The notes beneath the pieces are model-generated. The model ran no database searches. It was given only the letters and a program-made list of their open reading frames with translations, and was not told the DNA's origin. A stretch of DNA of 64,000 nucleotides. Source: a virus. Where the stretch lies: IMG/VR virus record IMGVR_UViG_3300037156_000189, positions 1-64,000 of that record. One strand, written 5' to 3'. Below, piece by piece: positions 30,517 through 48,242 of this stretch; within the stretch, counting starts at the first letter, position 1; every line of letters begins with the position of its first letter. The position numbers and the translations under genes are program-made.

Positions 30517-30543
30517 CGGATCACCTCAGGTGATGGGTTTGGA

Positions 30544-30777: not shown

Positions 30778-30789
30778 GATGCTGGTATC

Positions 30790-30867
30790 ACTCTAAACGC
30801 CGTTCCATTCTCTTGTCAATAGCCTCTATGAATTTATTTTGACTTGCTAGTCCATCAAGGCTACACC
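30790..30867. promoter_or_regulatory. Divergent promoters at the main strand switch
   Basis: - strand TTGACA-18-TAGAGT; + strand TTGACT-17-TACACC. Confidence 0.6.
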
Positions 30868-30879
30868 GTATAGGGCCAT

Positions 30880-31172
30880 GAGTTTAGACATACAGATACG
30901 TTCGGCTAGATTCCTTTTCACCTCTAGTTAGACAGTTAGGGGAGTTCCTAAGAGTCTAGTTAGACAATTGGACGCTCGCCAGGTCGACCAGATTCAGCGT
31001 CGACCCCCGTTGACTCCCTTGGGGGGTCCAATGCGGAACGTCGAGCCCCCCGTTCGCCGGCTGGATACGGGATGGTTGTCCTTGTCTAAGCTCGTGTAGA
31101 AATCAGGGCGGCTTTTGTTATTTGCAAACTAAGTACATGTTTAGGGGGTTCCTGCCGAATAAAAAATTTTAG
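30880..31172. other. Candidate packaging/terminus (cos/pac-like) region with TTAGACA repeats
   Basis: Non-coding; TCTAGTTAGACA x2, further TTAGACA, inverted TGTCTAA, G/C runs, AAAAAATTTT. Confidence 0.4.
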
Positions 31173-31205
31173 TTGGATTTCTACCCACAAGTCTAGTAGA
31201 ATAAA

Positions 31206-31266
31206 GGGGTCAGGAGGCTGTAACCTCCGGCAAGCCTAATCTCCCCAAGGAGGAGACCATGACCCC
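31206..31266 (+). promoter_or_regulatory. Structured 5' leader of HNH-AP2 gene 1
   Basis: GGGGTCA pairs with TGACCCC over the start codon; GGAGG-CTGTAA-CCTCC hairpin. Confidence 0.7.
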
Positions 31267-32047
31267 AGAACCAGCATACATCGAATTGTCCACCAGCCGT
31301 GGCATCAGATTTTGGGTTGACATCGAGGACTACCCCAAGATTAGGTGCCGGCCGTGGTGGGCGCAAGCGACAGACCAAGGTACTTTCTACTTGACCAGCA
31401 GAGATACTGGGCTTGATGAGGACGGGCACAAGTGGCAGCGTTCTGTGCAGATCGCTCGCCTGATCATGGGCTTGGAGTCGGGTAACCCACTTGTTGTAGG
31501 CCACATTAACGGCGAGCCCCGCGATAACAGGAAGATCAATCTGCGCGTCTGCACTCAGCGCGATAATGCGCGGAACAGACGGATATCTTGCATCAATACG
31601 TCGGGGTTTAAGGGTGTATCGCAGCTAGGCTTGGATTGTTGGGCAGCCGTGATAAGGGTGAACGGCCACGCATACCATTTGGGCACATTCGATTCCGCGG
31701 AGAAGGCATACCAGGCTTATTGCGAAGCGGCAGCATGGGCTTTCGGGCAGTTTGCTAACTTCGGGGAGGTTCGTGACGATAATTTCCGATTGCCTTCAGT
31801 ACCGCGTTCTGTCGTGATGCCGCCAAGACTGGCGGATAAGAAGCCCATGCGGCGTAGGCTGGCCGAATGGACTCCTGGAATAAGGGAAGAGGTCCCTGCC
31901 GATTTTGCGGGGCACCGACACGAAGAGTTCTGTTCGGTTGCGTCTTCGGTTCTCAAGCCTCGCACTCAGAGAGCAAGAGCGGGCCTTGGAGTTTGGGGTT
32001 TGTCCAAGAGCCCATTGGCCATCAGGAGCCACTTCATTTTCTCCTAG
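31259..32047 (+). CDS. HNH-AP2 homing endonuclease
   Basis: VGHINGEPRDNRKINLRVCT..DNARN, TSGFKGV, HLGTFDSAEKAYQAY...FGQFANFG. Confidence 0.9.
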   Translation: MTPEPAYIELSTSRGIRFWVDIEDYPKIRCRPWWAQATDQGTFYLTSRDTGLDEDGHKWQRSVQIARLIMGLESGNPLVVGHINGEPRDNRKINLRVCTQRDNARNRRISCINTSGFKGVSQLGLDCWAAVIRVNGHAYHLGTFDSAEKAYQAYCEAAAWAFGQFANFGEVRDDNFRLPSVPRSVVMPPRLADKKPMRRRLAEWTPGIREEVPADFAGHRHEEFCSVASSVLKPRTQRARAGLGVWGLSKSPLAIRSHFIFS

Positions 32048-32131
32048 CGCCTGTTCACGTTTTAATGTTTGCAATTTATTATTGCTTCGGTTTATAATCC
32101 GTAATGCGTGAGGATCTAGGAGGTCGCCAAC

Positions 32132-32383
32132 ATGCTGACTGATTCAGAATTTTGCTGCCCTCTCTGCGGTCTCGTCCTCACTTCCCTCCATGCTTTCCAC
32201 CAACATCTCGCCAAAGTTCACAACTCTCGGTCTCAGCAGGCGGCTGTGGGACCGGGACCCACAGCGGAGCCCGGACCCGCCGCTGCTGTGGGACCGGGGC
32301 CTGCGGCGGAGCCCGCAGCTGCCGCAGCCAGTTATGTCAATGGCTGCCCAATCCTGGACGACAAGATCGAGGTTTGGTCATGA
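32132..32383 (+). CDS. C2H2 Zn-finger small protein with an AAVGPGPxAEP tandem repeat
   Basis: CPLC...HLAKVH; SD AGGAGG. Confidence 0.6.
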   Translation: MLTDSEFCCPLCGLVLTSLHAFHQHLAKVHNSRSQQAAVGPGPTAEPGPAAAVGPGPAAEPAAAAASYVNGCPILDDKIEVWS

Positions 32384-32576
32384 GCAAGGATTCTTTTCCT
32401 ATCGTTGACCATTGTTTTGAGCCTCCCCAAGTACGATTCGAAAGTTCCTGATTTGGGGAGGGTATCTTGAGCGGCAAGGTGTATCGTGTGTGCCCGAGGT
32501 GCGGTCGTAGGGTTGGTGTGAAAAAAGATGGTCGTCAGGTTTGCGGGGGTAAGTTGGGTTGTGGTTGGAGGACAAA

Positions 32577-32978
32577 ATGAGCAAGTATGTGGTTCCTGAA
32601 GGTATGCTGAAGGCGGTAGACAAGGCAATCGGTGAGATGCGACTTGGACAGGCCAGCCGGTTAGCCCCACGCAATGGCGAACTTTGGCCGAACGAGTTGA
32701 AGCAGGTAGCTTTGGAGGCGGCTATCGGATGGCTGGACGGGAAACTAACCGAATTCGACCAGCCCGGGGCCTTCGATCAGTACCGGAATGGTTACAACGC
32801 GGCTATCAGATGTGTGCGCCGGATGTTTCTTGCTCCCGAGCCGGAAGTACCAGAAGCGATCAAAGACTTGATGTGGAGTCAACCGCTCTATAAATGCGAC
32901 ACGGAGTTCTACGAGGCGATACCAAATGCCAACGCCTCTGTCCTCGAAGCCTACCGGCGCGGCAAGGCCGGAAAGTGA
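32577..32978 (+). CDS. Hypothetical phage protein
   Basis: SD GGAGG, start MSKYVVPEGML. Confidence 0.6.
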   Translation: MSKYVVPEGMLKAVDKAIGEMRLGQASRLAPRNGELWPNELKQVALEAAIGWLDGKLTEFDQPGAFDQYRNGYNAAIRCVRRMFLAPEPEVPEAIKDLMWSQPLYKCDTEFYEAIPNANASVLEAYRRGKAGK

Positions 32979-33109
32979 GTTCCTCGTCCTCTGCTGGATG
33001 GGGTGGGTGCCGGTTCCATGCCTGGCCGGTTGTTTCCGTGGGGAGCGCATTCGGAGAACCCAAGACGCTTAGAATTTAGTGCGATATCGCACCTTTTGGA
33101 GAGAAAGAC

Positions 33110-34039
33110 ATGCCGGAATTTAGAGAGTTCCCGTCTATTGAGCAGTACAGGAATGTCGTAAAACTCGTCCGTGAGAGAGCGCAGTTCGACGGAAAGCCTC
33201 TGCCTACGATCTTGTTTTACGGGTCCGTCAAGCTCCACGGCACGAACGCGGCTGTTGGATTCGATGAAGACGGTGAATTGTTCACCCAGTCCAGAAGCCA
33301 GATCATCACTCCGGATAATGACAATGCCGGGTTTGCGAAGTGGGTGCGGGCCAACGATCAGATGTTCCCGAAACTCAAGTCGGCTGTGATCTACGGGGAG
33401 TGGTGCGGGCAGGGCATTCAGAAGAACGTTGGAATTAGCCAACTCCCAAAGATGTTCGTCCCTTTCGCCATCAAGTCGGGAGACAGGTGGTGGTCCCCGG
33501 AAGAAATGAAGACGTTCTTCTTCCACTCCGGCTTGCGTTGCATCTACGATTTCCCGTCATGGTCGATGCTGATTGATTTCAGCCGGCCAGAAGAGTTTCA
33601 GAACGATCTTGTCGATCTGACCGTAAAAGTGGAGCAGCAGTGCCCCGTGGCTCTCGCGCACGGCGTTGAGGGTATCGGTGAGGGCATCGTGTGGTGGGCG
33701 GCTCCCTGTGACGGGTTTAACACTGAGGGGCTGGTATTCAAGGTGAAGGGCGAGAAGCACAGCGAAACCAAAGTCAAAACCCTTGCCGCCGTCGATGTGG
33801 AGAAGATTGGAAATATCCGGGAGCTGGTAGCGACGATTGCTACCCCTCACCGCATGGAGAAGAAACTAGAAGGGATTCCGGTGGATATCAAGAACACAGG
33901 AACCTTCCTAAAAGCGGTCACGGAAGACGTGATGAAGGAAGAGGCCGACACCATCGACGCCAGCGGGTTGCCGAAAACGGACGTGATGAAAGGCATTGCA
34001 ATGGCTGCAAAGAAGTTCTTCATGGAACAGGTAAAGTAA
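33110..34039 (+). CDS. RNA ligase, Rnl2-like family
   Basis: Motif I KLHGTN, QSR, motif III YGEWCG, FAIK, motif IV EGIVW, motif V FKVKGEK. Confidence 0.85.
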   Translation: MPEFREFPSIEQYRNVVKLVRERAQFDGKPLPTILFYGSVKLHGTNAAVGFDEDGELFTQSRSQIITPDNDNAGFAKWVRANDQMFPKLKSAVIYGEWCGQGIQKNVGISQLPKMFVPFAIKSGDRWWSPEEMKTFFFHSGLRCIYDFPSWSMLIDFSRPEEFQNDLVDLTVKVEQQCPVALAHGVEGIGEGIVWWAAPCDGFNTEGLVFKVKGEKHSETKVKTLAAVDVEKIGNIRELVATIATPHRMEKKLEGIPVDIKNTGTFLKAVTEDVMKEEADTIDASGLPKTDVMKGIAMAAKKFFMEQVK

Positions 34040-34079
34040 GCCCAACTCTAGTGAGATATCGCACCTCCCGGGAGCAAGC

Positions 34080-34304
34080 GTGAAAAGCATCAAGCGTGAC
34101 ACCAGAAAGCCGAGAATGCGTCAAAGGGATCGTGTGAACGCCCGCGAACAGTACGAGGAGTACAAGCGCCTGGAGGCCGAGTACCTGGCCGCGAGATGTG
34201 AGGATTCCTGCGACTACGGGTTTTCGGAGCTGCGGGACCGGGACCCGCAGCGCCTGACGCCCTATGACCGTATGTTCCTGCGGGCTTTGAAGATCAAAAC
34301 CTGA
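34080..34304 (+). CDS. Hypothetical protein
   Basis: SD GGGAG, GTG start. Confidence 0.5.
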   Translation: MKSIKRDTRKPRMRQRDRVNAREQYEEYKRLEAEYLAARCEDSCDYGFSELRDRDPQRLTPYDRMFLRALKIKT

Positions 34305-34368
34305 GAAAGTTCAAAATAGCTCATCCACTTGTATCCGCCCTGGCGTACTATTCCTAGTGGAGATTCAT

Positions 34369-34921
34369 CATGCACGAACGTTACCGTTATCTTCTCGAAG
34401 TTCTCGAAACGACCCTCAAGACCGTCGAGCGCGTCACTCGCCGCATGGATAAGGAGGCCGCGGAGGACCGGGAGACCCTGGGCTTCCTGCTCCACGAGCT
34501 GAGAAACATCGAGCACGACCTGCACCCGCCCACCCCTCCCCCGCCACCTCCCCCTCCCCCTCCCTCTCCAACTTTCGCAACCAGCATCAGCTTCACGGAG
34601 ACTTCAATGAACCCGACTCAAGCAGGCAACACCCAAGTATTTACCGGCACGCTCGTTCCCGCCGGCGCAACTTACCCCGCGGACACCACGTTTACTCTGA
34701 CGTCCAACGATCCGGCGGTAAGCCCCACTGTGGATTCAACAGGGCTGGTGGTCAGCGTTACCTATCCCGACGGATGGGTTGAGAGCACCAGCACACCCCT
34801 CGCGTTCTCCTATGGCGCTGCCAGCGTCAGCGAGAACGGAGCCATCAGCGCGACCATTACCCCCTCGGCTCCCGTCGGCGGCGCGTTCCCCAGCGGAATT
34901 TCCTTTCAACAGTCTCAGTAG
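34369..34921 (+). CDS. Coiled-coil / poly-Pro / Ig-like beta-domain protein
   Basis: Domain composition; internal SD and ATG at 34607. Confidence 0.6.
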
Positions 34922-34942
34922 TCAGCGGCTTCCCATCACTAA

Positions 34943-34980
34943 AGAAGGCCTCGGCCCTAACCAGGACCGGGGCCTTTTCT
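34943..34980 (+). terminator. Intrinsic terminator
   Basis: AGGCCTCGG/CCGGGGCCT stem followed by TTTCT. Confidence 0.65.
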
Positions 34981-35025
34981 GCACCAATAGTTGACAACAT
35001 AATCTAATCGTGGCGGTATTATTGA

Positions 35026-35686
35026 ATGAGCGCGCGCGATCCCATCCCCCATCTTCCGTCTGCCCCGCCTCTCGCTCTCTCCCTTTCTACTCTCCCCACC
35101 GCGCGCGATCTTCTCTCCATCCAGGATTTCCGCCTGCGCCTGCGCAGGACTCTTCTCGACTGTCCCACCCTGACTCTCAAACAGGTTGCTCAAGCCCTCG
35201 GCGTCACCAGGCAGTACGTCGGAGCCCTCGTTGGCTCCCTCGGCCGCCCCACATGTGCTCGTCACGACAAGCCGGGGGCCGAAGCGTGATCAAGCCCAAT
35301 CCCACCTCAAGGAACTGACCGTACGGGTGGCCAGGGGCGAATCAGCGGAGCAGGCCGCCCGCGCTCTCGGCATCTCCCTCCCTGCTGCGGCGAAACTTGG
35401 CTTTAGAACCAAAGCCATTCGCCCCTCTCATGGCGGCGGGCGAAAGGATTGTTTTTGTTGGCGATGTAAGAAGGCTCAGGGACTTGTCACGCCGAGAGGG
35501 CCAAAGAGCGGAGCGGCGACAAGGGCCGAGGTCGAAGACTGGTTGGCGTGGACAGATCCCTATGACGGAACTCAGCTAACACAGGCAACGATTGGGCGCC
35601 TGGCGGGAACGCATCAGGGCGCAGTGTCCAGGATTGCGAGGAGAAGAGGAAGGTTCGCGCTACTTGACGAAGTTACCGATCAATAG
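35026..35686 (+). pseudogene. Multi-HTH protein split by a +1 frameshift at the G5 run (35274-35278)
   Basis: HTH TLKQVAQALGVTRQYV in the first frame; AARALGIS and TQATIGRLAGTHQGAVSRI in the second frame. Confidence 0.55.
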
Positions 35687-35916
35687 GCTGAGGCACCAGA
35701 ATGCCATTCCTGCCCATCCAAGGTTGACTCGTGGAGACGATGGGACATTCAATGCGGCTAGGGCCAACAGCACAAACGCGAAAACCAGAAGGATTGTTCC
35801 GAGCACAGACTACCTCCAAGACTAGATCATTGGATGCCTCACCCGCCCATCCACGCTGTACTCTTTGGATCACCCCTTAAATTTTCCTCTTGATAGTTGC
35901 TATTATTTGGTATACT

Positions 35917-35985
35917 GGGGGTGTCTCCAGTTGCATCTGGAGGTCCCACACTCAAGCGCCTTGGAGGACGATCGGTGACACCCCC
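35917..35985 (+). promoter_or_regulatory. Structured 5' leader of HNH-AP2 gene 2
   Basis: GGGGGTGTC/GACACCCCC pairing; TCCAG-TTGCAT-CTGGA hairpin; TGn-TATACT upstream. Confidence 0.65.
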
Positions 35986-36685
35986 GAAGAAAAGTCTAGT
36001 GCAGATTCGCGCAGAGCGCGAGCAACGTTGTGCTGAGATGCGAAGGTTATCAGGTCAAGGAAAAAATCAGACAGAGATTGCAGAATTGTTTGGGCTTACG
36101 CCTCAACGTGTAAGCCAGTTGGTGGGGAAGGCCCGCGGCCCTGGGTGTAACTATCCCAGGACTGTATCAGAGCGCATAGATGCCGATCAAAAAGCGTATT
36201 TAGAAATTCAAATGTGCAGCGGCGAGAAGTTTCTTTTGGACCCAGAAGAATTGGAGAAGGTCAGCGGATTCGGTTGGCGTACGCGCTCAAACCGTTCTGC
36301 ACAAGCTCGTTACGTAGTTGCCCCGCTGGTTGAAATTGTGGATGGAAAGAAGTTATCCACTACCTTGCAACTTGGTCGTGTGATCATGGGGCTGGGTCGA
36401 GGCGACCCGCGCGTTATCGATCACATTAACGGGGACACTTTGGATAATCGTAAGGCTAATTTGAGGGTGTGTACTAACGCGGAGAATATTAGAAACAGGT
36501 GCAGGGACAAAGACAACGCTTCTGGATTTAAAGGGGTTACATGTGAGGGCAAGAAATGGTTAGCCCAAATATTTCACAATGGGCGGGGGTACCGTTTAGG
36601 TAGGTTTTCTACTCCGGAAGAGGCGCACGCTGCGTATTGCGCGGCGGCCGTGCGTTTCTACGGTAAGTTTGCGAATTTTGGTTGA
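35975..36685 (+). CDS. HTH-HNH-AP2 homing endonuclease
   Basis: NQTEIAELFGLTPQRVSQ; IDHINGDTLDNRKANLRVCT; SGFKGV; LGRFSTPEEAHAAY; GTG start after GGAGG. Confidence 0.9.
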   Translation: MTPPKKSLVQIRAEREQRCAEMRRLSGQGKNQTEIAELFGLTPQRVSQLVGKARGPGCNYPRTVSERIDADQKAYLEIQMCSGEKFLLDPEELEKVSGFGWRTRSNRSAQARYVVAPLVEIVDGKKLSTTLQLGRVIMGLGRGDPRVIDHINGDTLDNRKANLRVCTNAENIRNRCRDKDNASGFKGVTCEGKKWLAQIFHNGRGYRLGRFSTPEEAHAAYCAAAVRFYGKFANFG

Positions 36686-36733
36686 AAAAGATTTATTGCA
36701 AACCTTCGACTTTATGTTATGCTTTGTCCTGTT

Positions 36734-37108
36734 ATGTCAGACAAGTCCCCCACTACCGTAGCTGAGAAGCGCCTGCTCTGGCTGATCCGTGATATCGTGG
36801 CGCAGTCCTGCGCTGACTACAAGAAAAGCGCTACCCCCGCTTACGATGATCCCATCCATGTCTTCTCTGGTTTCATCGGCATCCATGCCGAGGCGATCGC
36901 GCTGCTTGCCGAGTATGGGTTGGTAAAGGACCTGGCCGACAACGGCGGCCGAGTGGTCAGAGGGAAGCTGTTGCCGGTGGGCGAGGCAGCCAAAGTGCTG
37001 AAGACGGGGCCATTCCGTCCGAAGGAGGATGTGAATCCTCTCCCATCCGCCGCGGACCTCGATGCCGTGGCGCAAGAAGACTCAGCGCGGGAGGCCACGC
37101 AGAAATGA
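36734..37108 (+). CDS. Hypothetical protein
   Basis: Follows TTGCAA-16-TATGCT. Confidence 0.55.
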   Translation: MSDKSPTTVAEKRLLWLIRDIVAQSCADYKKSATPAYDDPIHVFSGFIGIHAEAIALLAEYGLVKDLADNGGRVVRGKLLPVGEAAKVLKTGPFRPKEDVNPLPSAADLDAVAQEDSAREATQK

Positions 37109-37476
37109 CCGACAAGCCCCCCATCATTCGGATCGATCCCTGCAGAAGCCGTGTTTTTGCTTGGATCGAGTTCAACTCCGATGCCTCTGAGGTGAGGGAC
37201 GAAGTCACAAATCGTTTGGTTCAGCCGGCGGGGCCTGCGATCACAGCGAGATATCGAACCACTGGCATGGAGATGACGGCGTGGCCGATCACAGAGGAAG
37301 AGGCGAGGCGCATCATGCAGCCCGGCGCCGAGTTCGACTACTCCTCCGGCCGCGCCTGGTCCCAGATCGTGATGCCTTACAAATCCAAGAGAACGGTCAA
37401 ATCAGGCCAAAGACAAGAGACGGTCAAACAACGTACCGAGATCGAGCAGCGCGCGGGAAGGCGGTGGTTGGCGTGA
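37105..37476 (+). CDS. KTSC-like small protein
   Basis: Weak pattern match (Y.TTG...W.ITEEEARRIM...SSGRAWS.IV..Y). Confidence 0.35.
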   Translation: MTDKPPIIRIDPCRSRVFAWIEFNSDASEVRDEVTNRLVQPAGPAITARYRTTGMEMTAWPITEEEARRIMQPGAEFDYSSGRAWSQIVMPYKSKRTVKSGQRQETVKQRTEIEQRAGRRWLA

Positions 37477-39188
37477 GACAATCTCTCCGAATCAGCGAGT
37501 CCCTCTCTCTTCCTTCCAACGCGGTGACTCAGACCTTCGCGTGCATTGGTCGCAAAGGTGCCGGGAAAACATACCTCGCGTCTATGCTGGCTGAGCAGAT
37601 GCTCGATCTCGGTGCGCAGGTAGTCATCATTGATCCTGTCGGAAATTGGTGGGGGCTACGTGTAGATGCCGATGGGAAATCCAAAGGCAAAGACATCTTC
37701 ATTGCCGGCGGTGAGCGCGGAGACGTGCCAGTCCTGCCTGAATCCGGTGCGCGGTTCGCGCGGCTGGTTGTCGAGCGCAATGTTTCGATGGTGTTGGACG
37801 TTTCTGGTTTTCGTCAGGGCGAGCGCAAGCGATTTGCTGCCGATTTTGCTGAGGAGTTTTTTCATCTCAAGAAGACTCAACGTAGTGCTGTTCATCTGTT
37901 CGTTGAGGAAGCGCAATTGTTTGTTCCTCAGCGGTGCGGTCCTGAAGAAGCGCGAATGCTCGGTGCGTTTGAGAACATCATTCGACTTGGCAGGAATTAC
38001 GGAGTGGGTGCGACTTTAATTTCCCAACGGCCGCAATCGGTCAATAAGGAAGTTCTCTCCCAGGTCGAATGCCTTTGCGTGCTTCAGGTCAACGGTTCGC
38101 ACGAGCGAAAGGCTCTGGAAGAATGGGTGCAGGAAGCCGGTGCAGACCGAAAGCTCGTCGGCGAGTTGCCGGGGTTGTCGCAAGGTCAAGGCTATGTCTG
38201 GTCGCCTTCTTGGCTCAGGGTATTCGAGCGGGTCAAGTTCGCTAAGAAAGTTACGTTCGATGCCTCGGCGACTCCGGAAGTCGGTAAGGCGACGAAGGCC
38301 GCGTTGTTGACTGCTGTCGATGTTGAAGCGCTAAAGGCCGATCTCCAGTCGGTGATCGCCAGTGCTGAGAAAGACGATCCGAAAGTTCTGCGGCGAAAGA
38401 TTGCAGAATTGGAGCGTGCTGTGAATCAGACGGCTCCTAAAGATTCTGAAGAGACAAAACGGCGGTTGGCAGTAGCCGAGGAAGATGTTCGCAAGCTTGC
38501 ACAGTCGTTGTCGGAGGCACAACTTCGCTGTAACACGCTTCAGGGCTACATGGCTGCGTTGCAGAAGATTCAGGCGGCAGCAGAAACGATGCAGCCCCTG
38601 GAGTCTGTCGTAGTCACGCGATCTGAATATCGAAGCCCTGTGACCCCTAAGTTGAAGCCACAGCGAGAATGGCCGAAGCCGTTCAAGTCTGTTGCGGCTT
38701 CGTCGAACGGTCATCTTCGCGCCGGAGCACGCCGCATGCTCGCGTGTCTGTGCCAGTGGCTTCCTGCCGGTCGCACTGAGTCTCAGGTTGCTGCGCAGGT
38801 GCAGATGAAGAAAACCGGAGGTACGTGGTCGGCTTACAAATCCGATCTGCGCAATGGCGGTTACATCGAGATTGGTGGTGGCGGCCTCTGGTACGCTACC
38901 GATCAGGGACGCAATTATTTAGGCGCGGATGTTCCCGATACACCTACCACTACTAATGAGGTTGTTGAACTCTGGGGTCAGAAACTTCGCCTTGGTGCGC
39001 GGAATATGCTGGATGTACTCGTGCGGCACAAAGGCCGGGCGATTGCCAAGGATGAATTGGGCCAGGCTGTGAACATGGAGTCGAGCGGCGGAACATTCTC
39101 CGCTTACCTCTCTGATCTCAAGCAGGCGGGACTGATTGTAGTGGACCGTGACGGCGTGCGTGCGAATACGGAGACATTGTTGCTATGA
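37473..39188 (+). CDS. HerA/FtsK-like (DUF87) ATPase with coiled coil and two C-terminal winged-helix repeats
   Basis: GRKGAGKT, IIDPVG, FVEEAQ.F.PQ, RLGRNYG..L.SQRP; repeats GARRML...GGTWSAYKSDL / GARNML...GGTFSAYLSDL. Confidence 0.8.
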   Translation: MRQSLRISESLSLPSNAVTQTFACIGRKGAGKTYLASMLAEQMLDLGAQVVIIDPVGNWWGLRVDADGKSKGKDIFIAGGERGDVPVLPESGARFARLVVERNVSMVLDVSGFRQGERKRFAADFAEEFFHLKKTQRSAVHLFVEEAQLFVPQRCGPEEARMLGAFENIIRLGRNYGVGATLISQRPQSVNKEVLSQVECLCVLQVNGSHERKALEEWVQEAGADRKLVGELPGLSQGQGYVWSPSWLRVFERVKFAKKVTFDASATPEVGKATKAALLTAVDVEALKADLQSVIASAEKDDPKVLRRKIAELERAVNQTAPKDSEETKRRLAVAEEDVRKLAQSLSEAQLRCNTLQGYMAALQKIQAAAETMQPLESVVVTRSEYRSPVTPKLKPQREWPKPFKSVAASSNGHLRAGARRMLACLCQWLPAGRTESQVAAQVQMKKTGGTWSAYKSDLRNGGYIEIGGGGLWYATDQGRNYLGADVPDTPTTTNEVVELWGQKLRLGARNMLDVLVRHKGRAIAKDELGQAVNMESSGGTFSAYLSDLKQAGLIVVDRDGVRANTETLLL

Positions 39189-39485
39189 CCCATGAAATCC
39201 CCCACACTTGCCACAGTCTTACCCCCACCGAGCGCCAACAGATCCTAAGGCGCCTCAAGTACGGCCCCGCTCTTCCGCGAGAGGAACTGGCTGAATACGC
39301 GAACAAGCTGAAGCGGGATGTGTTGGACAAACGAGAGGGAGTGAAGAAGTGAGCGCCAGTACCCAATTCCTAGTTGCGTTTGTTGCAGGCGGCGTTCTCA
39401 TGTTGCTCGGCCGTATAGTCGGCGAATGGATGAGCGAGCGCAAGTTTAACAGAGAAAGGCTCGCAGCGAAAGAGAAGGTGCAGAA

Positions 39486-39833
39486 GTGAGCCCCCGCCCC
39501 CGACTTCCCAAAACGCAGTGGGCCAACGACAGTATCCGGGTGGACGTGAAGGCCGCCGGACTGGTTGACGAGCCGGCCAATCAAGAGGTTTTCAACGCCT
39601 GTCTCAATGAGATGGGTTCTGTGAGATTCAGAATCATGCTGGGCTGTTACGGCCCTGGGACAGAAACTGCTCCGAAGCCCAAGTACCACTGGATTCTCGG
39701 GGAGTCGGCGACAATTCTATGCCGCGATCTTGAAACTGCCGAATGGTTCAGGGAGTCTCTTCTCTCCTGGCTGAAGTCTCTTGACGGCATTCGTCTAGAG
39801 GCCGTCGACGACGGAGCGGAGGACGCGCAATGA
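39486..39833 (+). CDS. Hypothetical protein
   Basis: Coupled ORF. Confidence 0.5.
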   Translation: MSPRPRLPKTQWANDSIRVDVKAAGLVDEPANQEVFNACLNEMGSVRFRIMLGCYGPGTETAPKPKYHWILGESATILCRDLETAEWFRESLLSWLKSLDGIRLEAVDDGAEDAQ

Positions 39834-40390
39834 AACTCGAACGCGCTCTCGCTTGTGCAGGCTGGATGTCCGAAGCTGAGTTGGCCTACATCGCCGGTCT
39901 TGCTCCTCGCAGCAAGATCGTTGTTGAACTCGGCTCGTGGCGCGGGCGCTCCGCGATCGCATGGGCCGAGAACGGGGCCAAGGTTGTCTACTGCGTGGAT
40001 ACCTGGGATGACTCCGCATTTGGTTGCGAGAATTTCCCCGGCGATGCTCCTGATCTCAAGCAGCGGCCCGAGTGGCTTTGGAATGAGTTCCTGCGCAATA
40101 CCGTGGGCCTCCCCAACATTTTCCCTTTGCGCATGACCACGGCGGAGGCGGCTGGATTCTTAGCCCCCCTGGGGATCAAAGCCGATGTGGTTTTTATCGA
40201 CGCCGGGCATCTCGCGCATGAAGTTGTTGCCGACATCGAAGCGTGGCGGCCGTTGCTGAGGGATGAGAATTCAGTTCTTTGTGGCCATGATTACAATTTC
40301 TCAGGATGGCCTGACGTGAAGACCGTAGTAGACCAGATGATTCCCAAATTCAGTGTGATTGGGACGATCTGGACCACGGAGGGCGTCTGA
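39830..40390 (+). CDS. Class I SAM-dependent (O-)methyltransferase, Methyltransf_24-like
   Basis: VVELGSWRGRS, CVDTW, VFIDAGH, CGHDY. Confidence 0.85.
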   Translation: MKLERALACAGWMSEAELAYIAGLAPRSKIVVELGSWRGRSAIAWAENGAKVVYCVDTWDDSAFGCENFPGDAPDLKQRPEWLWNEFLRNTVGLPNIFPLRMTTAEAAGFLAPLGIKADVVFIDAGHLAHEVVADIEAWRPLLRDENSVLCGHDYNFSGWPDVKTVVDQMIPKFSVIGTIWTTEGV

Positions 40391-40974
40391 TGCCTCCCAC
40401 TTTCACGATTATTACTGCCACGATTCAAAGAGAGTCCCTTGTTCGCTGCTGCGCCTCTGTGAATGCTCAGTCTCTTACTGATTGGCAGCATCTGATCGTC
40501 ATGGACTGCGCGATAGAGGATGTGAATTCAGAGTTGATGTTTTCCCTGGCGCATCCTCGCCGCCGATTCTACTGCTGTGGTCAGCGCTACAACGATTTCG
40601 GTAACTCACCGAGGCATCAGGCTTACGAGTTCGCCACGGGAGATTTTGTATACTTCTTGGACGATGATAACGAGTTTGCGGATTCCGACGCGCTGCAGCG
40701 CATGTCCGACGCGCTTGCCAAAGCGGGTTGTCCTCTGGTTTCCATCTTTCCAATCATCCGTGATGGCCAGAGGTTCTTCAATGACCCTCCCGGCCTTTGC
40801 CTGACCGACACTGCCAACTTCTGCCTGCGCCGCCAGATTGCGCAGTGGCTTGCGGGGCCGGAGTACGAAATGGATGGGATCTTGATCGAGCGGTTGGTCA
40901 AGAAGTGCGGATACGAAGCGTTCCCCGACGTCGAACCGATCGCTATCATGGAGAAATCGAATCATGGAAAATAG
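40390..40974 (+). CDS. GT-A/GT2 glycosyltransferase
   Basis: FTIITAT, SVNAQ, IVMD, GNSPR, YFLDDDN. Confidence 0.85.
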   Translation: MPPTFTIITATIQRESLVRCCASVNAQSLTDWQHLIVMDCAIEDVNSELMFSLAHPRRRFYCCGQRYNDFGNSPRHQAYEFATGDFVYFLDDDNEFADSDALQRMSDALAKAGCPLVSIFPIIRDGQRFFNDPPGLCLTDTANFCLRRQIAQWLAGPEYEMDGILIERLVKKCGYEAFPDVEPIAIMEKSNHGK

Positions 40975-41815
40975 TCCCCGCATTTTACTTGGCTTCCTTT
41001 CGGCTTACCACCCATCGCGTTGGCACCGTCGTCAGATCTTGCGTGAGCAGTGCCTCAAGAATTCTCCGCTCCCTTGGAAGTTCGTTTTCGGGGACGAGCC
41101 CTATCCAGGGGATCGTGAGCGTTGTGGAATCCCTGACGATGAAATTCTTCACGCGTCAGGATCGGACGCGAAGAAGTATCTTCATCTTAAGGATGTCGCG
41201 CTGTTCAAATATGCGCTTGATAATGGGTTCGACTACTGCTTAAGAGGGTGCGACGACTCATGGGTTTTCCCCGACCGCATCGTCCGCGCCGGCTTGGAGC
41301 CTTTCGATTATGCCGGCAATTTTCCGTGCAAGTTCAAACTGGGTGGAACTTTTGATGTTCCCATGGCGAGAATGAATTACGCGCACGGCGGGTGTGGAAT
41401 CTGGCTCTCGCGTAAGGCCATGCAGATGATCGTGGATACTCCCTGGGATGAGCATTATTTGGACTCGTGGCCTGAGAAGCTCGATGTGGGGTTTGGGATC
41501 AAATTTCCCAAGATGCCCTGGTATTGGGACGACCATTTTCTGGGGGAGGTCTTGCAAGGGAATTTGGGTTATTTCGATCCTCTGCGCGACCAGCCGTGGC
41601 AATCCTACGCGGCCAATGGAATTGCCTGTTACGAAGACTCGGACTTGTTCTTCAACGACGAACCCCAACGGCCCCTCACGATCCATGATCCCGGCGTGCA
41701 CAAGCCAAACTCACGTGAGATGGATGAAGTTGTTGAGCAAGCGAGAGCAAGGAACATCGCGGCGATGATGATTGGTCAGCCAGTCGATGTGGAATTGGAG
41801 CCCACCCATGGTTGA
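40964..41815 (+). CDS. GT31/Fringe-like (galactosyltransferase-type) glycosyltransferase
   Basis: KFVFG, YLHLK, FDYCLRGCDDSWV, FDYAG, HGGCGIWLSRKAM, WDDHFLG. Confidence 0.75.
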   Translation: MENSPRILLGFLSAYHPSRWHRRQILREQCLKNSPLPWKFVFGDEPYPGDRERCGIPDDEILHASGSDAKKYLHLKDVALFKYALDNGFDYCLRGCDDSWVFPDRIVRAGLEPFDYAGNFPCKFKLGGTFDVPMARMNYAHGGCGIWLSRKAMQMIVDTPWDEHYLDSWPEKLDVGFGIKFPKMPWYWDDHFLGEVLQGNLGYFDPLRDQPWQSYAANGIACYEDSDLFFNDEPQRPLTIHDPGVHKPNSREMDEVVEQARARNIAAMMIGQPVDVELEPTHG

Positions 41816-42329
41816 TTTCAATCTCTTTCAAAGAGTCGGCAGTTTCTTCGAGCAGCGTCGTGAGTACAGAGCCCAAGCTCTCAAGAACCTCCGTAAGCGC
41901 GAGGGACTTCCTTCCCCAGTTGACGAGAACGGTTCTCCTCTCGAAACTCGCATGGATGACTACGGCAACGCGACATATCACAATGCTGCGGGAGAGAAGG
42001 TCGACCGAGTTCTCTTCGCCGGGGCCGGCAAGGACGGCAAGCCCGGATCGTTCGCTGTCGGCCAGCGCCGCGGTGATCCGCTCGACGAGGCAACTCGGAA
42101 CTGGGCCAGTGGCCACTCAGCTTTTGAAATCCTCGACGTCGCAGAAGACGGTCGTCGCCTTTCCGATGAGCTGAACGATCTCGACCGGGATTCCAGCACC
42201 TTCGCCATGGCTGAAACTGTGTCCCACGGCGTCGAGTCCGAGCAGGCGCCGGGATTTGAGATCACTGGGACTTCGGACGAAGAGATCGACCAACGGCTGC
42301 AGGAGTTTTTGAAGAGAGGTCCGCGGTGA
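41808..42329 (+). CDS. Hypothetical acidic protein
   Basis: SD GGAG. Confidence 0.55.
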   Translation: MVDFNLFQRVGSFFEQRREYRAQALKNLRKREGLPSPVDENGSPLETRMDDYGNATYHNAAGEKVDRVLFAGAGKDGKPGSFAVGQRRGDPLDEATRNWASGHSAFEILDVAEDGRRLSDELNDLDRDSSTFAMAETVSHGVESEQAPGFEITGTSDEEIDQRLQEFLKRGPR

Positions 42330-42778
42330 TGAGCGATAGGCCAAAGATTGTGTGTCTCTGCGGGTCCACGCGGTTTCGCGATCAGTTTGCTCAAGCGAAC
42401 TATCGTGAAACGCTGAAAGGGAGCATAGTCCTGAGTGTGGGCTTTTATGTCCATGCCGCAGATGAGTGCCCGAACTGCGATGCGTCGCAGAGCTTCGCGA
42501 AAGAGCAGAATGCTGAGGGTCCGCAAGGAAAGTGTTGGCAGTGCGGTGCAGACCTCGGCTGTACGTCGGAGCAGAAGATCGCTTTGGATGAACTTCACAA
42601 GCGCAAGATTGATTTGGCCGACGAGATTTTGGTGGTTACCGTTCAAAGATATATCGGCGAGTCTACGTTTTCTGAGATAGAATATGCTCGGCAGTGTGGT
42701 AAGTCTGTCCGATGGCTAGAGCCTACTGCTGAGGAGCGATTTCATGAGTTGGCCGAAAGGCGTGCCGCGCGCACCTGA
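42326..42778 (+). CDS. Nucleoside 2-deoxyribosyltransferase-like fold protein with a Zn-ribbon insert
   Basis: CLCGSTRF, HKRKIDLADEILVV, YIGEST..EIEYA; CPNC/CWQC insert. Confidence 0.65.
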   Translation: MMSDRPKIVCLCGSTRFRDQFAQANYRETLKGSIVLSVGFYVHAADECPNCDASQSFAKEQNAEGPQGKCWQCGADLGCTSEQKIALDELHKRKIDLADEILVVTVQRYIGESTFSEIEYARQCGKSVRWLEPTAEERFHELAERRAART

Positions 42779-43358
42779 AACGATTGCAAAAATGAAGGCG
42801 TCTTCTCCGCGCAGATCAGGATGGCGCCATTCGGAAGAGACAAAGTTGAAAATAGCAGCGGCTCGTCAAGCGCGCGAAGCGTTAAAGCCGCCGAAGGCTG
42901 CATGTAAAAAACGAGGTCGAAATGGGTGGAAGTGGACTGATGAGCAGAGGGAAAAATACAGTGCAAGTCGCAAAGGACGCCATTTTAGCGACGAGGCAAG
43001 AGCACGGCTTGCTGACAATAGGCGTATGTTTTGGGATAGTCTCCCCTCTGAAGATCGAGAACGACGATTGGTGCGTTGGCGAGGGTACGGTTCTGAAGGT
43101 GTGCGTTCACGACGCCCTAGCGGCGCTTGTCAAAAGTGTGGAGTTTATCGTCAGTCTCTTCATCGTGAGCACATTATTCCGCGTTGGAAGGGTGGAAAGG
43201 ACGATAGCGAGAATATCCAATGGCTTTGTGCAAATTGCCACGAGGATAAGACTCGCGAGGATCTCCGTGGTATACCGGGACCGAACAGAGGTAAAAAACC
43301 AAGCGAGGAGACACGAGTTAAAATGCGTGCGGCCGCGCTTCGTCGTTTGAGTCGCTAA
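42744..43358 (+). CDS. HNH endonuclease with NUMOD3 DNA-binding repeats
   Basis: HSEETKLKI, FSDEARARL, PSEETRVKM; CQKC...HREHIIP..KGG.D..ENIQWLCANCH. Confidence 0.85.
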   Translation: MSWPKGVPRAPETIAKMKASSPRRSGWRHSEETKLKIAAARQAREALKPPKAACKKRGRNGWKWTDEQREKYSASRKGRHFSDEARARLADNRRMFWDSLPSEDRERRLVRWRGYGSEGVRSRRPSGACQKCGVYRQSLHREHIIPRWKGGKDDSENIQWLCANCHEDKTREDLRGIPGPNRGKKPSEETRVKMRAAALRRLSR

Positions 43359-43430
43359 CAGTGGTAGTACGAATATTGAAATTGAGTATCCAGTAACGAG
43401 AGGTAAACCTGTGCGATATACGGAGTCAGT

Positions 43431-44129
43431 ATGAGTAACACGGCTGACACTCGTCCTGATCTTATTCACCCGTTCCAGTTCCAACCGGGGCGTGAGTCTG
43501 AATGCAGCCACTTTTACCCGTGGCTCGGCGGATACGTCAAGTGCAACGCGAAGGAATCCAGTCCAATTCATCGCAATGGCCCACATCTGCTGACGGCGAA
43601 AAACGGCGAGCAGGCTTATTGCCTTGGCGATCCTGCTGTTTGTCAGTTTTGTGCGGAAGGCCGTCCCGCAACATTTTACAACTGGAAGGCGGCTGAAGAT
43701 GCCCGCTGACTTTTTCCTCTGTCCCGGTTGCGAACTGCCGGTAGCCGAAGAAGGTTCTCTTTGCGAGTCCTGTGCTGCATGGCAGGCACAGAAGTTGGCA
43801 GCTATGAATTCCGAGTATCAGGATAGCTTGGCGAGGCAAGTGCGTCGCCGTATGAGCCCTGGCGCGCGATTCGCCGAAGACTTGTCGGATATGGCGAAGG
43901 CCGTGGAACGGAGTCGGAGATGAACATAACCGGTGTCTACCAGTTCCCGCAGAATCGGTGTATTTGCTCCATCTGCAACTTCATGTGCTGGACGGAGCAG
44001 AAGAGCGGAAAAGTGGTGGTGTCGCATCCGACTCACCCGACTTGTCCCAATTCGCATCAGGCTTTCGAAGTGCCTGTGACTGAGTGCAAACCACTACCGC
44101 CAGAGTTTTTCTCGGACCAGATAGGATAG
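43431..44129 (+). CDS. Three small Cys/His-rich Zn-binding proteins (43431-43709, 43699-43923, 43920-44129)
   Basis: Coupled ORFs with CxxC pairs. Confidence 0.5.
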
Positions 44130-44131
44130 CA

Positions 44132-44887
44132 ATGACTCAAGAAATCGAATCCATCAAGCCCGCCCTGTCGGTCATTCTTGACGACGGTGACTTCATCGTC
44201 AATTCCACCGGCCCGGTCGGCAAGGCAATGGCGCAGGCAATCTTACCTCTCGCCGCCGGTGCGAGGAAAGTGACGATCATCACAGATGGTGAGATGAAGG
44301 TGATGAAGCGGAATGGGAACGGGACTAACGCGGGACAAGCGCCGCAGACAGCGGCTCAGGCGATGGCTCAGCGCCGGCCTGCGCTCCCCGATGGTCCCGA
44401 TGTCCAGGATTCTTTTGTCTCCGATATCGAAACTGGAGTTACGGGCGAGCAGGCCATGGGTGAAACTCCTGCCCCTACTCCCGGCCCGTCCGAGCCAGTC
44501 AAGATCCCAACTAAGCGCAAACCAGTCATTTTCCAGGATGCTGCCGCCCCACCGGCTCCCGAGCTGGCTGAGGAGGAGATGGACCGGCTTATGGCCGAGG
44601 CGCAGCAGGCGGAAGCGGAAGCGGCCAAGGTGGCCGAGGATCAGCGGTTCCAGCGGCAGCAGGCTGTGCAGGCTAATCAGGAGCCCTCTGATGTTCCTGC
44701 CGAGCAGCCCGCTGAGGCCGCCAAGCCACGGCGTCGTGAGCGCCAGCTTGCCACCACGGGCCGGCCCTGCGGCCGCTGCGGCGGTGGCGGGAAGGTCATG
44801 GGGGACGCCGGGTTCACCGGAGCCTGTCCCGTGTGCCATGGTGAGGGCCAGGTGAAGACCTGGGACCGGTCGTTGAAGGTTCGATAG
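44132..44887 (+). CDS. Low-complexity protein with C-terminal DnaJ-type Zn finger
   Basis: CGRCGGGG...CPVCHGEG. Confidence 0.65.
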   Translation: MTQEIESIKPALSVILDDGDFIVNSTGPVGKAMAQAILPLAAGARKVTIITDGEMKVMKRNGNGTNAGQAPQTAAQAMAQRRPALPDGPDVQDSFVSDIETGVTGEQAMGETPAPTPGPSEPVKIPTKRKPVIFQDAAAPPAPELAEEEMDRLMAEAQQAEAEAAKVAEDQRFQRQQAVQANQEPSDVPAEQPAEAAKPRRRERQLATTGRPCGRCGGGGKVMGDAGFTGACPVCHGEGQVKTWDRSLKVR

Positions 44888-44930
44888 GCTGAATCTGTAG
44901 TATGGTAATGTTGCAAACCAAGGATACCTG

Positions 44931-47426
44931 ATGGCTCACATGCCCGATTCCGCGCTTCCTCTCTGCAACAATCCGCAGCATCCTGCGGGTCTCCCGAGGC
45001 GTATGATCTATCTTCAGACCAAGGACCAGGCCCATGTCTTTGGCTGCCAGGCCTGTCGCGACGTTAATCGTAAGCTCTCTGTCCGCGTGATTACCGATCA
45101 GTTCTACCGGCGCGAGGTCAGGAAGTCCCTGGCCGCATCCGGCCAGTTGCTGAAGGGTCCGATGCGCCGTCGTGAACGCTCTCCCATGGAACTTGGCCTG
45201 ATGCGGGAGATGAGTCTCGATGCCGCTCGCCGCGACACTCGCTCTCGCACGATCGATTGGGATTCCGAGCATCGGCGTTCCCGCGACGGCAAGTACGAAT
45301 TGGTTCGCTACGAGAGCCTGGGCAACGGCAGCCTGCGAATCCAGATGGCGATCAACGGCAAGCTCTGCCCTCAGATGGATGATCATGTAGCCAGCCGGGA
45401 AGAGTTCAAGACTGAGGAAGCATACTGGAGCCGGGTCGCGCGAGGCAGCGAGCTTATCCTGCACCTCTACGGCGATCCTAGAAATCCGTTGACGCCGGAA
45501 GAAAGCGCGCAGCGGGAAAGTGAAACTTACTAAGTCAGAACGGAGAACCAATCGTGAATTTTCAAATTACCTACGCTCAAGTCGATCCTGCGAATAACAG
45601 CATCAACAGGCAGCAGACTTTGTACAACTGCATTATCGACGGCAGCGTTGTGCGCTCCGATCTTGTTGTATTCCGGGACGAGGCCAACACCGGCTCGGTA
45701 GTCGCAGTAGTTCCGCTTGCCGGGGTGCTGATGATAGTGGAGAGCGAGCATTTGACTGCCCCGGCCGCTCCTGCTCCGGCCGTCTGAGCGGGAATCTCTT
45801 AACAGGTCCAACCAGAATCGAAAGGATTACACAGATGTCTCGACTTGCCGCAGTCCGCACCGGTCAACCAACTCAAGGTTTAGGCACAGTTCCTAACGGA
45901 AAGCATCTGCCTGCCGGCATTGATGATCTTGAACCGCCTGTGACTATAAACCCTCGCTCCGCGCATTCCGCCGCGGCTGCGACTGTGACGGCCGCCTGGC
46001 TGTCGCTGACCGCAACCGAGCTGGAGGTCCGGAAGTATTTCAAGTCGATCCCGGTTCCTTCCGGCTTGGAGGCTCTGGCAAAGATGCGCCACCAATGCGA
46101 CCTGGCGGCCGAGACTCTTCAGGGCCGGATGGACGAATCAAATACCGAACGCTGCACTGGCTGTGGGAAGACGCTTGAGGAGACGCATAAGAACCAGTGG
46201 CTGATGATCGGGGCGGATGTTGACGCTGAGACAGGCGTGCCGATGCCGTACCGCTTCTGCGGCCCGTTATGTATTCGTGAGCGCAATCGCGAGAAGATGC
46301 TTCCGAAGGAACTGCGCGATCAGAAGCGGTTTGATGGCGCCGACATGGGCGAGGTGCGGTGATGTCTCAAAAATACGAAGACATCCTCAAAAACTCCGTC
46401 GAGAAGCTCTCCCTCGGTCCGAATGACATCCTTATTGTGAAGTCTCAGGAAGCGATGTCGACGTTTCTGGAGATGACCCAGGCCGGTGTCGGCTTCTCCA
46501 AATATGCGAACCCGATTCTCCTTGTCCCCGGCGGCCTGGAGAAGGCAACACGGGACGATCTTCTCGACGCGATCAGGATTCTGGATGAGAAGATCGCGAA
46601 CGAAGGAAAGCCGGAGGAAGCGGTCAGCCGGATCATTACTGATTTGCATGCGCCGCTTGTAAGGAGAGTCCAATGAGCCACACCTACTCCATCTTGAATC
46701 CGCGAGTCCCTTGCTGCGCGCAGATATTTCTTGATCTTTCCAACCGGTCCAACACCTATTGCCAACGCGAACTGGGCCATCCGGATGAGGCCGTGAAGGA
46801 ATTTCCCGGCGGGCACAACATTGTCGACGAGCCTCCTGTGGCGAAGGTACAGAAATGACCCGTCCCCTGAGCCCGATTCATGCGCCGCTCGACGCCGACC
46901 CGCCGTCGAGCCCGCCACCGATTCCGCGCATCGCCCGCCTTGCCAAGCTCGATTCGCGCCCGCTGTCCGGTTTGCCGCGTTCGCTCGGCCCCGGCGGAGC
47001 ATCCTCCGCGTTCGCGCGGGCAGTGGACAAGGCGCTGGTCGATGAGATGGCGGATCAGTTGCGAGGATTAGACACGGGCGAGAGTGAGATCGGCGATTGG
47101 GCCGGTGAGATCATCGCTGCGTTTTGTGAGGAGTAATGGACTCCATTTCTCCGGTTCTGACAGAACTCGAAGTGCCCGCTGAGCAGGTCGTCGCGCTCGG
47201 GCAAGATGGGTTCTACCCGATCGTTGTTGCGCGCGTCAGTTGGCGAGATAAAGACGAGAAGCTCATGGCGGTGTGCTCCTACACTCGCTACCGCTTCACC
47301 GCCGCGGAGAGGGAGTTGATTTTGAAAGGGGCGGACTTGATCCTGGGGCAGCCGCATCATGGTCAGATGATGCCGGTATCGCTGCAGTTGGCGATGCCAG
47401 GAGAGTATCCGGTACAGGAGAAATAA
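44931..47426 (+). CDS. Run of hypothetical genes (44931-45533, 45554-45787, 45835-46362, 46359-46676, 46673-46858, 46855-47136, 47136-47426)
   Basis: Tightly coupled ORFs with SDs; no recognisable family. Confidence 0.55.
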
Positions 47427-47461
47427 AGTATCCAGTTGGAGGGTAAATAAAGTACACTTAT

Positions 47462-47522
47462 GGGGTCAGGAAGTTGTAGCTTCCGGCAAGCCTAATCATT
47501 CTGGAGGAATGATCATGACCCC
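47462..47522 (+). promoter_or_regulatory. Structured 5' leader of HNH-AP2 gene 3
   Basis: GGGGTCA/TGACCCC; GGAAG-TTGTAG-CTTCC; GGCAAGCCTAATC shared with 31206. Confidence 0.7.
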
Positions 47523-48228: not shown

Positions 48229-48242
48229 GTAGGAGGTCTGTT

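Follow-up and report, generated by a model that had tools for sequence, protein, structure and literature searches.

The window analysed in this study, the first 64 kb of a 74,763-bp virus record of IMG/VR (IMGVR_UViG_3300037156_000189, completeness approx. 97%), contains three genes for endonucleases of the HNH-AP2 type, and a reading of the sequence alone had noticed a structured leader in front of each of them. Judged by its sequence copies, this leader is a real multi-stem RNA element with covariation in its stems P1, P2 and P3. It is an undescribed motif, a variant of the T4 I-TevI/mobE type of control, and it probably represents a conserved cis-acting mRNA element of approx. 61 nt which gates the translation of free-standing homing-endonuclease genes.

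The members of the family consist of P1, P2, a short GGC..GCC segment, an AAUC linker and P3. P1 is a 7-bp helix in which the beginning of the leader pairs with UG-ACC/ACA-CC, bases of the start codon and of the second and third codons, P2 is a variable hairpin directly after the 5' arm of P1, and the loop and 3' arm of P3 contain the Shine-Dalgarno (SD) sequence. In all copies the start codon lies within P1 and the SD within P3. Covariation was computed on the model-based alignment A4 of 29 distinct sequences. The proportion of paired cells was 92.9%, compared with 80.8% in column shuffles (0 of 500 shuffles were as high) and 35-58% in slid controls, while the covariation score was 0.318 against 0.114 in the shuffles. 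Double changes were observed at 4 of the 5 pairs of P2 and at 4 of the 6 pairs of P3. The compensatory changes originally seen in P2 of the three leaders recur in the wider family, in which the loop consensus YTGYAN proposed for P2 is not conserved. At pair 3 of P1, 19 sequences have G-C and 9 have U-A. The 3' side of this pair is a synonymous Thr codon switch from ACC to ACA, and these codons are always matched by GGGG or GGUG, respectively, on the 5' arm. This pair was compensated in all 22 true metagenome copies and uncompensated in 6 of 15 chance matches (hypergeometric estimate approx. 0.002). Pair 7 alternates between A-U and G.U, and since none of the seven G.U pairs could form on the opposite strand, where the bases would be mismatched, it is the sense transcript that folds. 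Scans which left one arm of P1 free still recovered the complementary arm.

The segment between P2 and P3 (GGCAAGCC, GGACGAAUCC, GGCUCACGCC and others) can form a mini-hairpin (P2a) of 2-3 bp, one C-G pair of which is replaced by A-U in three sequences; in its commonest form a third pair would leave a 2-nt loop. From these sequences the mini-hairpin is weakly supported as a fourth helix. Many invariant unpaired bases, forming a pocket, would be expected of a riboswitch aptamer. The P2 and P3 loops and the junction from P3 to P1 are variable; only GGC..GCC and AAUC are conserved, and they vary in the divergent copies. A pseudoknot between the junction CCU and the AGG of the SD, assessed by eye, was dropped because CCU to CCC variants were uncompensated. 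In the minimum free energy (MFE) fold AGGCU from P2 of leader 1 is paired with AGCCU, which was rejected as it was not kept in other copies. A tRNA or tRNA-like cloverleaf was discarded as well: ARAGORN detected no tRNA or tmRNA in the window, and the arm lengths and loops do not fit.

The search for copies started with exact-pattern scans of IMG/VR contigs, after which true copies were separated from chance matches. A covariance model (R1) was built from 13 copies, and more divergent copies were recovered in full virus records. Two further copies came from a protein-guided search which was blind to the RNA. The scan of metagenomes fixed TATACT-N3-GGKGTCRG...TGACMCC only, leaving P2, the junction and P3 free and allowing all four combinations at pair 3 of P1; it gave 37 loci, 22 with the full architecture and 15 rejected by the models as chance matches. 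In total approx. 33 distinct leader sequences were obtained, from 12 IMG/VR virus records (that of the window included) and approx. 20 metagenome contigs. Each copy lies directly before an endonuclease gene whose protein has the N-terminus M/V-T-P, and in the covariance-model search of phage genomes every R1 match, in the window's own genome and in ten other virus records, adjoined an endonuclease open reading frame (ORF), directly upstream of it.

The genes behind the leader belong to at least five unrelated endonuclease families (HNH_3-AP2, HNH_2, classic HNH (PF01844), EndoVII-like (phrog_1035) and phrog_374/3377-type HNH), and the carriers other than HNH_3-AP2 likewise all begin with M/V-T-P. 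At least two phage lineages are involved: in one group of carriers the large terminase (TerL) is 78-92% identical to that of the window, in another only 27-28%. The sequence-only reading had supposed that the leader travels with HNH-AP2 endonucleases. In the own and the ten other records this holds for approx. 17 of 22 HNH-AP2 genes. Five such genes in carrier or related phage records have no leader, the HNH-AP2 genes without it do not start with MTP, and none of 80 other, diverse HNH-AP2 loci from IMG/VR has the leader, so that it is not a general companion of these proteins. On the sequences collected, the leader tracks a phage community, that of uncultured peat and soil phages, and not one protein family.

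The suggestion that the motif is undescribed was borne out within the sources consulted. Rfam 15 gave no match at gathering scores for the whole window and none at E<=1 for the three loci. No paper describing the leader was found, and none with the string GGCAAGCCTAATC or GGCAAGCCUAAUC (9-mer matches were unrelated); nothing relevant was found in the literature on RNA motifs near HNH genes. A blastn search with leader 3 against 50,697 phage records, covering cultured phages, returned chance fragments only, and the -10/P1 pattern had 11 matches in representative prokaryote genomes, none of them with the fold. The best score of model R2 among prokaryotes, 15.9 bits, belonged to a long palindrome in a metagenome-assembled genome of Acidobacteriaceae.

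In order to compare populations, DNA contigs from four peat runs were aligned to positions 30500-48500 of the window. Contigs of run X2 (depth 32) skip gene 1 together with its box and leader (joint 31069->32155, with 48 nt on the shorter side and the letters between the two sides not known). In a contig of run X4, which represents a related peat population, the stretch 47408-48257, with gene 3, its box and its leader, is replaced by 34 nt; this joint (47407->48258) rests on one contig with a depth of 3.6. Since the contigs without gene 1 or gene 3 are also without the leader, the leader is part of a mobile cassette, and the portable cassette postulated earlier is supported both by these joint losses and by the range of nuclease families. 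Presence/absence polymorphism was not seen for gene 2 in the four runs.

The -10-like boxes noticed in front of the three leaders turned out to be a feature of the family. A box TAnA(A/C)T lies exactly 3 nt before P1 in all 18 copies which had not been selected on the box, with T at -9 in 16, A at -8 in 18, A at -6 in 16 and T at -4 in 17 of them, counted relative to P1. The hexamers occur in no consistent context elsewhere in the genome which would point to a shared phage-wide promoter. According to the rules of sigma-70 promoters, transcription would start approx. 7 nt after the hexamer, which here would correspond to G3/G4 of P1. In the proposed mechanism, read-through transcripts coming from upstream genes would carry the full structure, with the start codon and SD sequestered, and the nuclease would not be made. 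Such read-through is expected, since all long ORFs lie on the + strand from 29304 onward and no terminator-like site separates leaders 2 and 3 from the genes before them. Transcripts from the built-in promoter would begin at G3/G4, drop the G-C-rich half of P1 and retain only the weaker P3, which would allow translation at a low level while the -35-less promoter is active. The box, the leader and the first three codons (M-T-P) would move as one regulatory cassette, which would have been joined to several unrelated nuclease genes within the peat and soil phage community. The modelled mean cost of opening positions -13 to +6 (n=18) was 12.8 kcal/mol in read-through RNA, 11.2 kcal/mol in RNA starting at position 1 of P1, 7.4-8.0 kcal/mol for starts at positions 3-5 and 7.6 kcal/mol with the 5' arm of P1 removed. 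The last two values are equivalent, and in the model P1 no longer contributes once the transcript begins at position 3 or later.

Several observations weigh against this start-codon lock. A full sigma-70 scan calls none of the box sites, no -35 partner is present and no -35 conservation was seen across the 18 copies; the box may need an unknown factor or may be no promoter. The promoter rules were borrowed from E. coli and may not be those of the host of the phage. The escape of the promoter transcripts from the lock is plausible in the model and purely inferential; the 24 public runs listed for 30900-36900 included none of RNA. In the short transcript P3 still covers the SD and costs approx. 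7.5 kcal/mol to open in the model, thus the "unlocked" state would be only partly open and expression would stay low. The covariation of P1 amounts to one pair plus the A-U/G.U alternation at pair 7, the search patterns prescribed the majority of the P1 bases, and alignment A4 was fitted to the model. Finally, the sequence conservation of P1 and GGCAAGCC exceeds the needs of a passive lock, which hints at recognition by a factor.

This last point leads to a reading which we regard as clearly less probable than the lock: a translational operator regulated in trans, in which a four-way junction (P1/P2/mini-hairpin/P3) is present on all transcripts and is opened or stabilised by a common factor. 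The factor, which would recognise the invariant P1 and GGCAAGCC..AAUC, could be an RNA-binding protein of the phage or its host, a small RNA or perhaps a small ligand. Besides the conservation of P1 and GGC..GCC/AAUC well above the pairing needs, the C-G to A-U switch in the mini-hairpin is in line with this, a transcript from position 1 of P1 retains most of the lock in the model (11.2 kcal/mol), and the occurrence of one leader before nucleases whose DNA-binding modules differ speaks for an external reader common to them. However, the loops and junction bases are otherwise variable, unlike those of ligand aptamers, the window contains no complement to the conserved segment elsewhere, and the fixed 3-nt spacing of the box is left unexplained. 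We consider it improbable that the element acts mainly at the DNA level, either as a homology patch for the recombinational exchange of the endonuclease cargo or as an operator for a DNA-binding repressor. It is true that the same leader is joined to five nuclease families, that the GGGG and GGUG variants of P1 both occur within single protein families, that the cassette is polymorphic for presence in the peat contigs, and that one contig follows the leader as far as 31241 and differs from there on (joint 31241->31745). There are also precedents in the PeSLs (PMC2839356, PMC4122927) and in the I-TevI operator overlapping its own late promoter (PMC2988022). The compensatory changes and G.U pairs nevertheless indicate selection on the single-stranded sense transcript and not on duplex DNA, and since the DNA-binding modules differ between the nucleases behind the leader, it is unlikely that each nuclease represses its own gene. 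A role in DNA can, in addition, coexist with the RNA function instead of replacing it.

The short and fixed distance between box and P1 and the stable, compact fold would also suit a 5'-terminal stabiliser or a processing signal, that is a paired 5' end acting against decay, with transcripts beginning at P1 or just ahead of it, or a mark for RNase cleavage, with translation control being secondary. Neither the pairing with the start codon nor the enclosure of the SD would be needed for such a purpose, and a start only 4 nt after the -10 hexamer is atypical for sigma-70 promoters; we think this explanation has little chance of being correct. Still less credible is the absence of any function, with helices formed by chance and a similarity which reflects only paralogy, or endonuclease genes that were duplicated and spread recently along with the DNA in front of them. 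Genes 1 and 3 are indeed paralogues (43% identity) and their leaders have a nearly exact core of 36 nt in common, for which the expected number of chance matches is 0. Against this stand approx. 33 distinct copies with diverged loops and compensated stems, before unrelated proteins and in phages with a TerL only 27% identical, and the covariation counts contradict it.

The start-codon lock has close parallels in known systems. In T4 I-TevI, I-TevII, I-TevIII and segB and in mobE of Aeh1 the position of the late promoter leaves its transcripts without the 5' part of a structure sequestering the ribosome-binding site (PMC2988022, PMC3014915). The leader resembles these T-even hairpins in its computed pairing of the SD and start codon of an endonuclease gene. 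It has a putative -35-less promoter at the 5' edge of the structure, and its own transcripts would likewise lack the inhibitory 5' strand (PMC2988022, PMC3014915). The T-even hairpins, however, are single, idiosyncratic stem-loops without a common sequence family, whereas the leader is one multi-helix fold, kept in sequence and structure in approx. 33 copies which come from at least two phage lineages and precede genes of five nuclease families. In the leader the start codon and the first three codons (MTP) make up one strand of the lock, and the promoter-like box is found just beyond the helix, at a constant distance of 3 nt, while the T-even promoter lies inside. The function was demonstrated experimentally in T4 and Aeh1, while the leader is known from sequence and modelling only. 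In the T4 late genes e, soc and 49 long early transcripts pair the SD and/or the AUG and late transcripts are translated (PMC3014915); unlike the leader, these structures are gene-specific, form no transferable family and are not tied to mobile nuclease genes. The PeSLs of T4-type phages are short promoter-plus-hairpin modules which flank variable genes, mark insertion/deletion boundaries and are apparently shuffled between loci (PMC2839356, PMC4122927). The leader also sits at insertion/deletion boundaries (joints 31069->32155 and 47407->48258). A PeSL, in contrast, has a strong, full sigma-70 promoter and a terminator hairpin and lies between ORFan genes, while the leader has no U-tract after any stem, contains the SD and start codon within its fold and is confined to endonuclease genes. 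Since it has neither a -35 nor a terminator, the leader is not a PeSL. I-TevI is furthermore repressed transcriptionally by its own product, through an operator overlapping its late promoter (PMC2988022). In both cases there is conserved sequence on or beside the promoter of the endonuclease gene itself, which is a putative one in the case of the leader; the I-TevI operator, however, resembles the homing site of the nuclease and is bound by that nuclease, whereas the leader precedes nucleases with different DNA-binding modules and its variation obeys RNA pairing rules. The principle is thus already known from T4, and what is new is one sequence-and-structure family reused across nuclease families.

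In the window itself the three leaders, the arms of P1 and P2, the -10 boxes and the SD hairpins of genes 1 and 3 could all be read out where they had been reported (Table 1). All three proteins start with MTP as claimed, while the start codon of gene 2 is GTG and not ATG. The true start of gene 3, with proper SD spacing and kept in relatives, is the ATG given in Table 1, and the ORF list uses ATG 47509. A leader shared by all three genes was confirmed for genes 1 and 3, gene 2 being divergent. GGCAAGCCTAATC is present in leader 1, within the block common to genes 1 and 3. P1 is present in the MFE folds of all three leaders (z = -2.6, -1.9 and -2.8). A Watson-Crick helix of 7 bp or longer between -85..-25 and -3..+13 was found at 6 of 140 ORF starts, a crude set from the whole 74.8-kb genome, and three of the six are the HNH-AP2 genes.

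Table 1. Positions of the leaders, their helices and the associated genes (SD, Shine-Dalgarno sequence; aa, amino acids; R1 and R2, scores of the respective models)
Feature	Position	Strand	Remarks
Gene-1 cassette (upstream spacer, -10 box, leader, endonuclease gene, 3' spacer)	31070..32154	+	absent in related peat population
-10-like box TAGAAT	31197..31202	+	3 nt upstream of P1
Leader 1	31206..31266	+	R1 78.2 bits, E = 2e-17; covariation
Leader 1, P1	31206-31212 / 31260-31266		GGGGTCA / TGACCCC, spanning ATG 31259
Leader 1, P2	31213-31217 / 31224-31228		GGAGG / CCTCC
Leader 1, mini-hairpin	31229-31236		GGCAAGCC
Leader 1, P3	31240-31244 / 31252-31256		TCTCC / GGAGA; SD AAGGAGG in loop and 3' arm
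HNH_3-AP2 endonuclease gene 1	31259..32047	+	262 aa, N-terminus MTP
-10-like box TATACT	35911..35916	+	directly abuts the longer P1; preceding TGG gives extended -10 form
Leader 2, divergent relative	35917..35985	+	R1 none at E<=10; R2 18.1 bits, E = 0.076 in 106 kb
Leader 2, P1	35917-35925 / 35977-35985		GGGGGTGTC / GACACCCCC; 9 bp, Thr ACA with UGU
Leader 2, P2	35926-35930 / 35937-35941		TCCAG / CTGGA
Leader 2, SD and start	35963-35968; 35975		SD GGAGGA; GTG; mini-hairpin and P3 not clear
HTH-HNH_3-AP2 endonuclease gene 2	35975..36685	+	236 aa from GTG, N-terminus MTP
Gene-3 cassette (repeat of upstream gene's 3' end, -10 box, leader, endonuclease gene)	47408..48257	+	
-10-like box TACACT	47453..47458	+	3 nt upstream of P1
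Leader 3	47462..47522	+	R1 84.2 bits, E = 6e-19
Leader 3, P1	47462-47468 / 47516-47522		GGGGTCA / TGACCCC, spanning ATG 47515
Leader 3, P2	47469-47473 / 47480-47484		GGAAG / CTTCC
Leader 3, mini-hairpin segment	47485-47492		GGCAAGCC
Leader 3, P3	47495-47501 / 47507-47513		ATCATTC / GAATGAT; SD GGAGG 47503-47507
HNH_3-AP2-type endonuclease gene 3	47515..48228	+	237 aa, N-terminus MTP; immediately upstream of large terminase gene

The core motifs of the three HNH-AP2 proteins align. HNH_3 is above the Pfam cut-off in gene 1 (E = 2e-6; 27.7 bits, cut-off 24.8) and gene 2 (E = 2.7e-8), and AP2 is below its cut-off in all three: in gene 1 (E = 2.5e-5; 24.9 bits, cut-off 33.3), in gene 2 (E = 1.7e-5), which also has Sigma70_r4 (E = 1e-5), and in gene 3 (E = 1.5e-4). 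In gene 3 HNH_3 (E = 0.016) is below the cut-off too, and the protein is alignable with HNH-AP2 relatives. Pfam detected no HNH_3 genes in the genome beyond these three. The leader of gene 2 has the box, the 9-bp P1 in the ACA/UGU form, the P2 hairpin and the SD-ACGAUC-start block, and no recognisable mini-hairpin or P3. No close relatives of it which could be used for covariation were found among the 80 diverse IMG/VR HNH-AP2 loci. From its sequence it would be at best a marginal, divergent relative and not an established member of the family.

Some further features were observed around the cassettes. Gene 1 is preceded by a non-coding stretch of 500 nt, which within 30920-31200 has the repeats TCTAGTTAGACA (30924, 30955) and TCTAGTAGAAT (31190) and G/C-rich hairpins at approx. 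31000-31030. The gene-3 locus is also occupied in the relatives G001, G004, G005, G007 and G008. In G001, a syntenic relative of 74.5 kb, the homologue of gene 3 (L013 810-1106; G001:C1:14911-15621) has an internal TGA after 98 codons and an intact leader (80 bits), that is, a decaying nuclease gene behind a preserved leader. Just before the box of gene 3, at 47398-47452, the last approx. 25 nt of the upstream gene are present as an imperfect tandem repeat (GTATCCGGTACAGGAGAAATAAAG / GTATCCAGTTGGAGGGTAAATAAAG). The layout is the same in L010, and in L016 a single copy runs straight into the box; the repeat may be the scar of a cassette insertion or exchange. On the other side of gene 3, in the region 48231-48362, the N-terminus of the large terminase is conserved upstream of its first ATG (48360). 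The relatives have TTG (L016, L017, L022), ATC (L010) or ATT (L091) at the terminase start position, 6 nt after AGGAG(G), and the window has TCG (48243). The variant without gene 3 has an in-frame GTG for the terminase within its 34 replacement letters. The GTG there and the TCG in the window place the 3' boundary of gene 3 inside the start region of the terminase.

A fourth nuclease gene (42744-43358), of the HNH_5 + NUMOD3 family, overlaps the preceding ORF; it was checked for a similar leader and none was found. This gene and the overlapped ORF are missing in contigs of two peat runs (42329-43430, joint 42328->43431), and the region represents a further mobile cassette, one which does not carry the leader. 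A stretch of 1.7 kb (37477-39220) is absent from contigs of three peat runs, with CCCTC between the sides of the joint 37476->39221. This region contains most of a 635-aa ORF which matches only the C-terminal part of the large terminase (phrog_2666, positions 304-516), and a similar partial TerL copy is located upstream of the real TerL in G007. Three peat runs have contigs in which 32375-34240, the region of the RNA ligase gene (33110-34039, phrog_548), gives way to 27 nt (joint 32374->34241). In G005 the large terminase gene (G005:C1:22097-24853) is broken by approx. 1.07 kb between residues 479 and 478-564, and in G009 (G009:C1:704-2405) it is split into two pieces which overlap and contains a stop; these interruptions may be due to an intron, to an intein or to the insertion of a nuclease.

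The final 100 bases of the record duplicate positions 249-348, and this end repeat means that the 74,763-bp record is circularly permuted or terminally redundant, though it is labelled linear. A megablast search with 31000-36800 gave no match among the 50,697 phage records, that is, no near-identical deposited phage, and the DNA polymerase of the window has 56% identity to its counterpart in Ralstonia phage RpY1. The public runs containing DNA of the window are labelled as peat, permafrost and freshwater metagenomes.

A homing endonuclease has to be produced in a way which does no harm to its carrier phage, and in T4 each gene has its own solution. Here one RNA fold with a built-in promoter box and a three-codon start is reused by at least five nuclease families of uncultured phages, and it is a candidate for a new Rfam RNA family. 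The signature box-N3-GGGGUCA...AUGACCCC with the MTP start can be used to annotate mobile nuclease cassettes and true start codons in viromes. The leader provides a natural part of small size, the translation of which may depend on the position of the transcript start, and it offers a test case for the question whether regulatory leaders are exchanged as modules between selfish genes. A more far-reaching idea, which we put forward only tentatively and hold to be rather doubtful, is that the leader goes beyond a passive lock and is a dedicated, transferable "endonuclease control module" read by a common factor of phage or host through the invariant P1 and GGCAAGCC..AAUC, and is in addition a recombination handle for the swapping of nucleases. 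If true, this would be a gene-cassette system for selfish nucleases in soil phages, with a logic like that of integron attC or PeSL exchange, in which promoter, leader and MTP start are already in place and nuclease genes of unrelated kinds are exchanged behind them.

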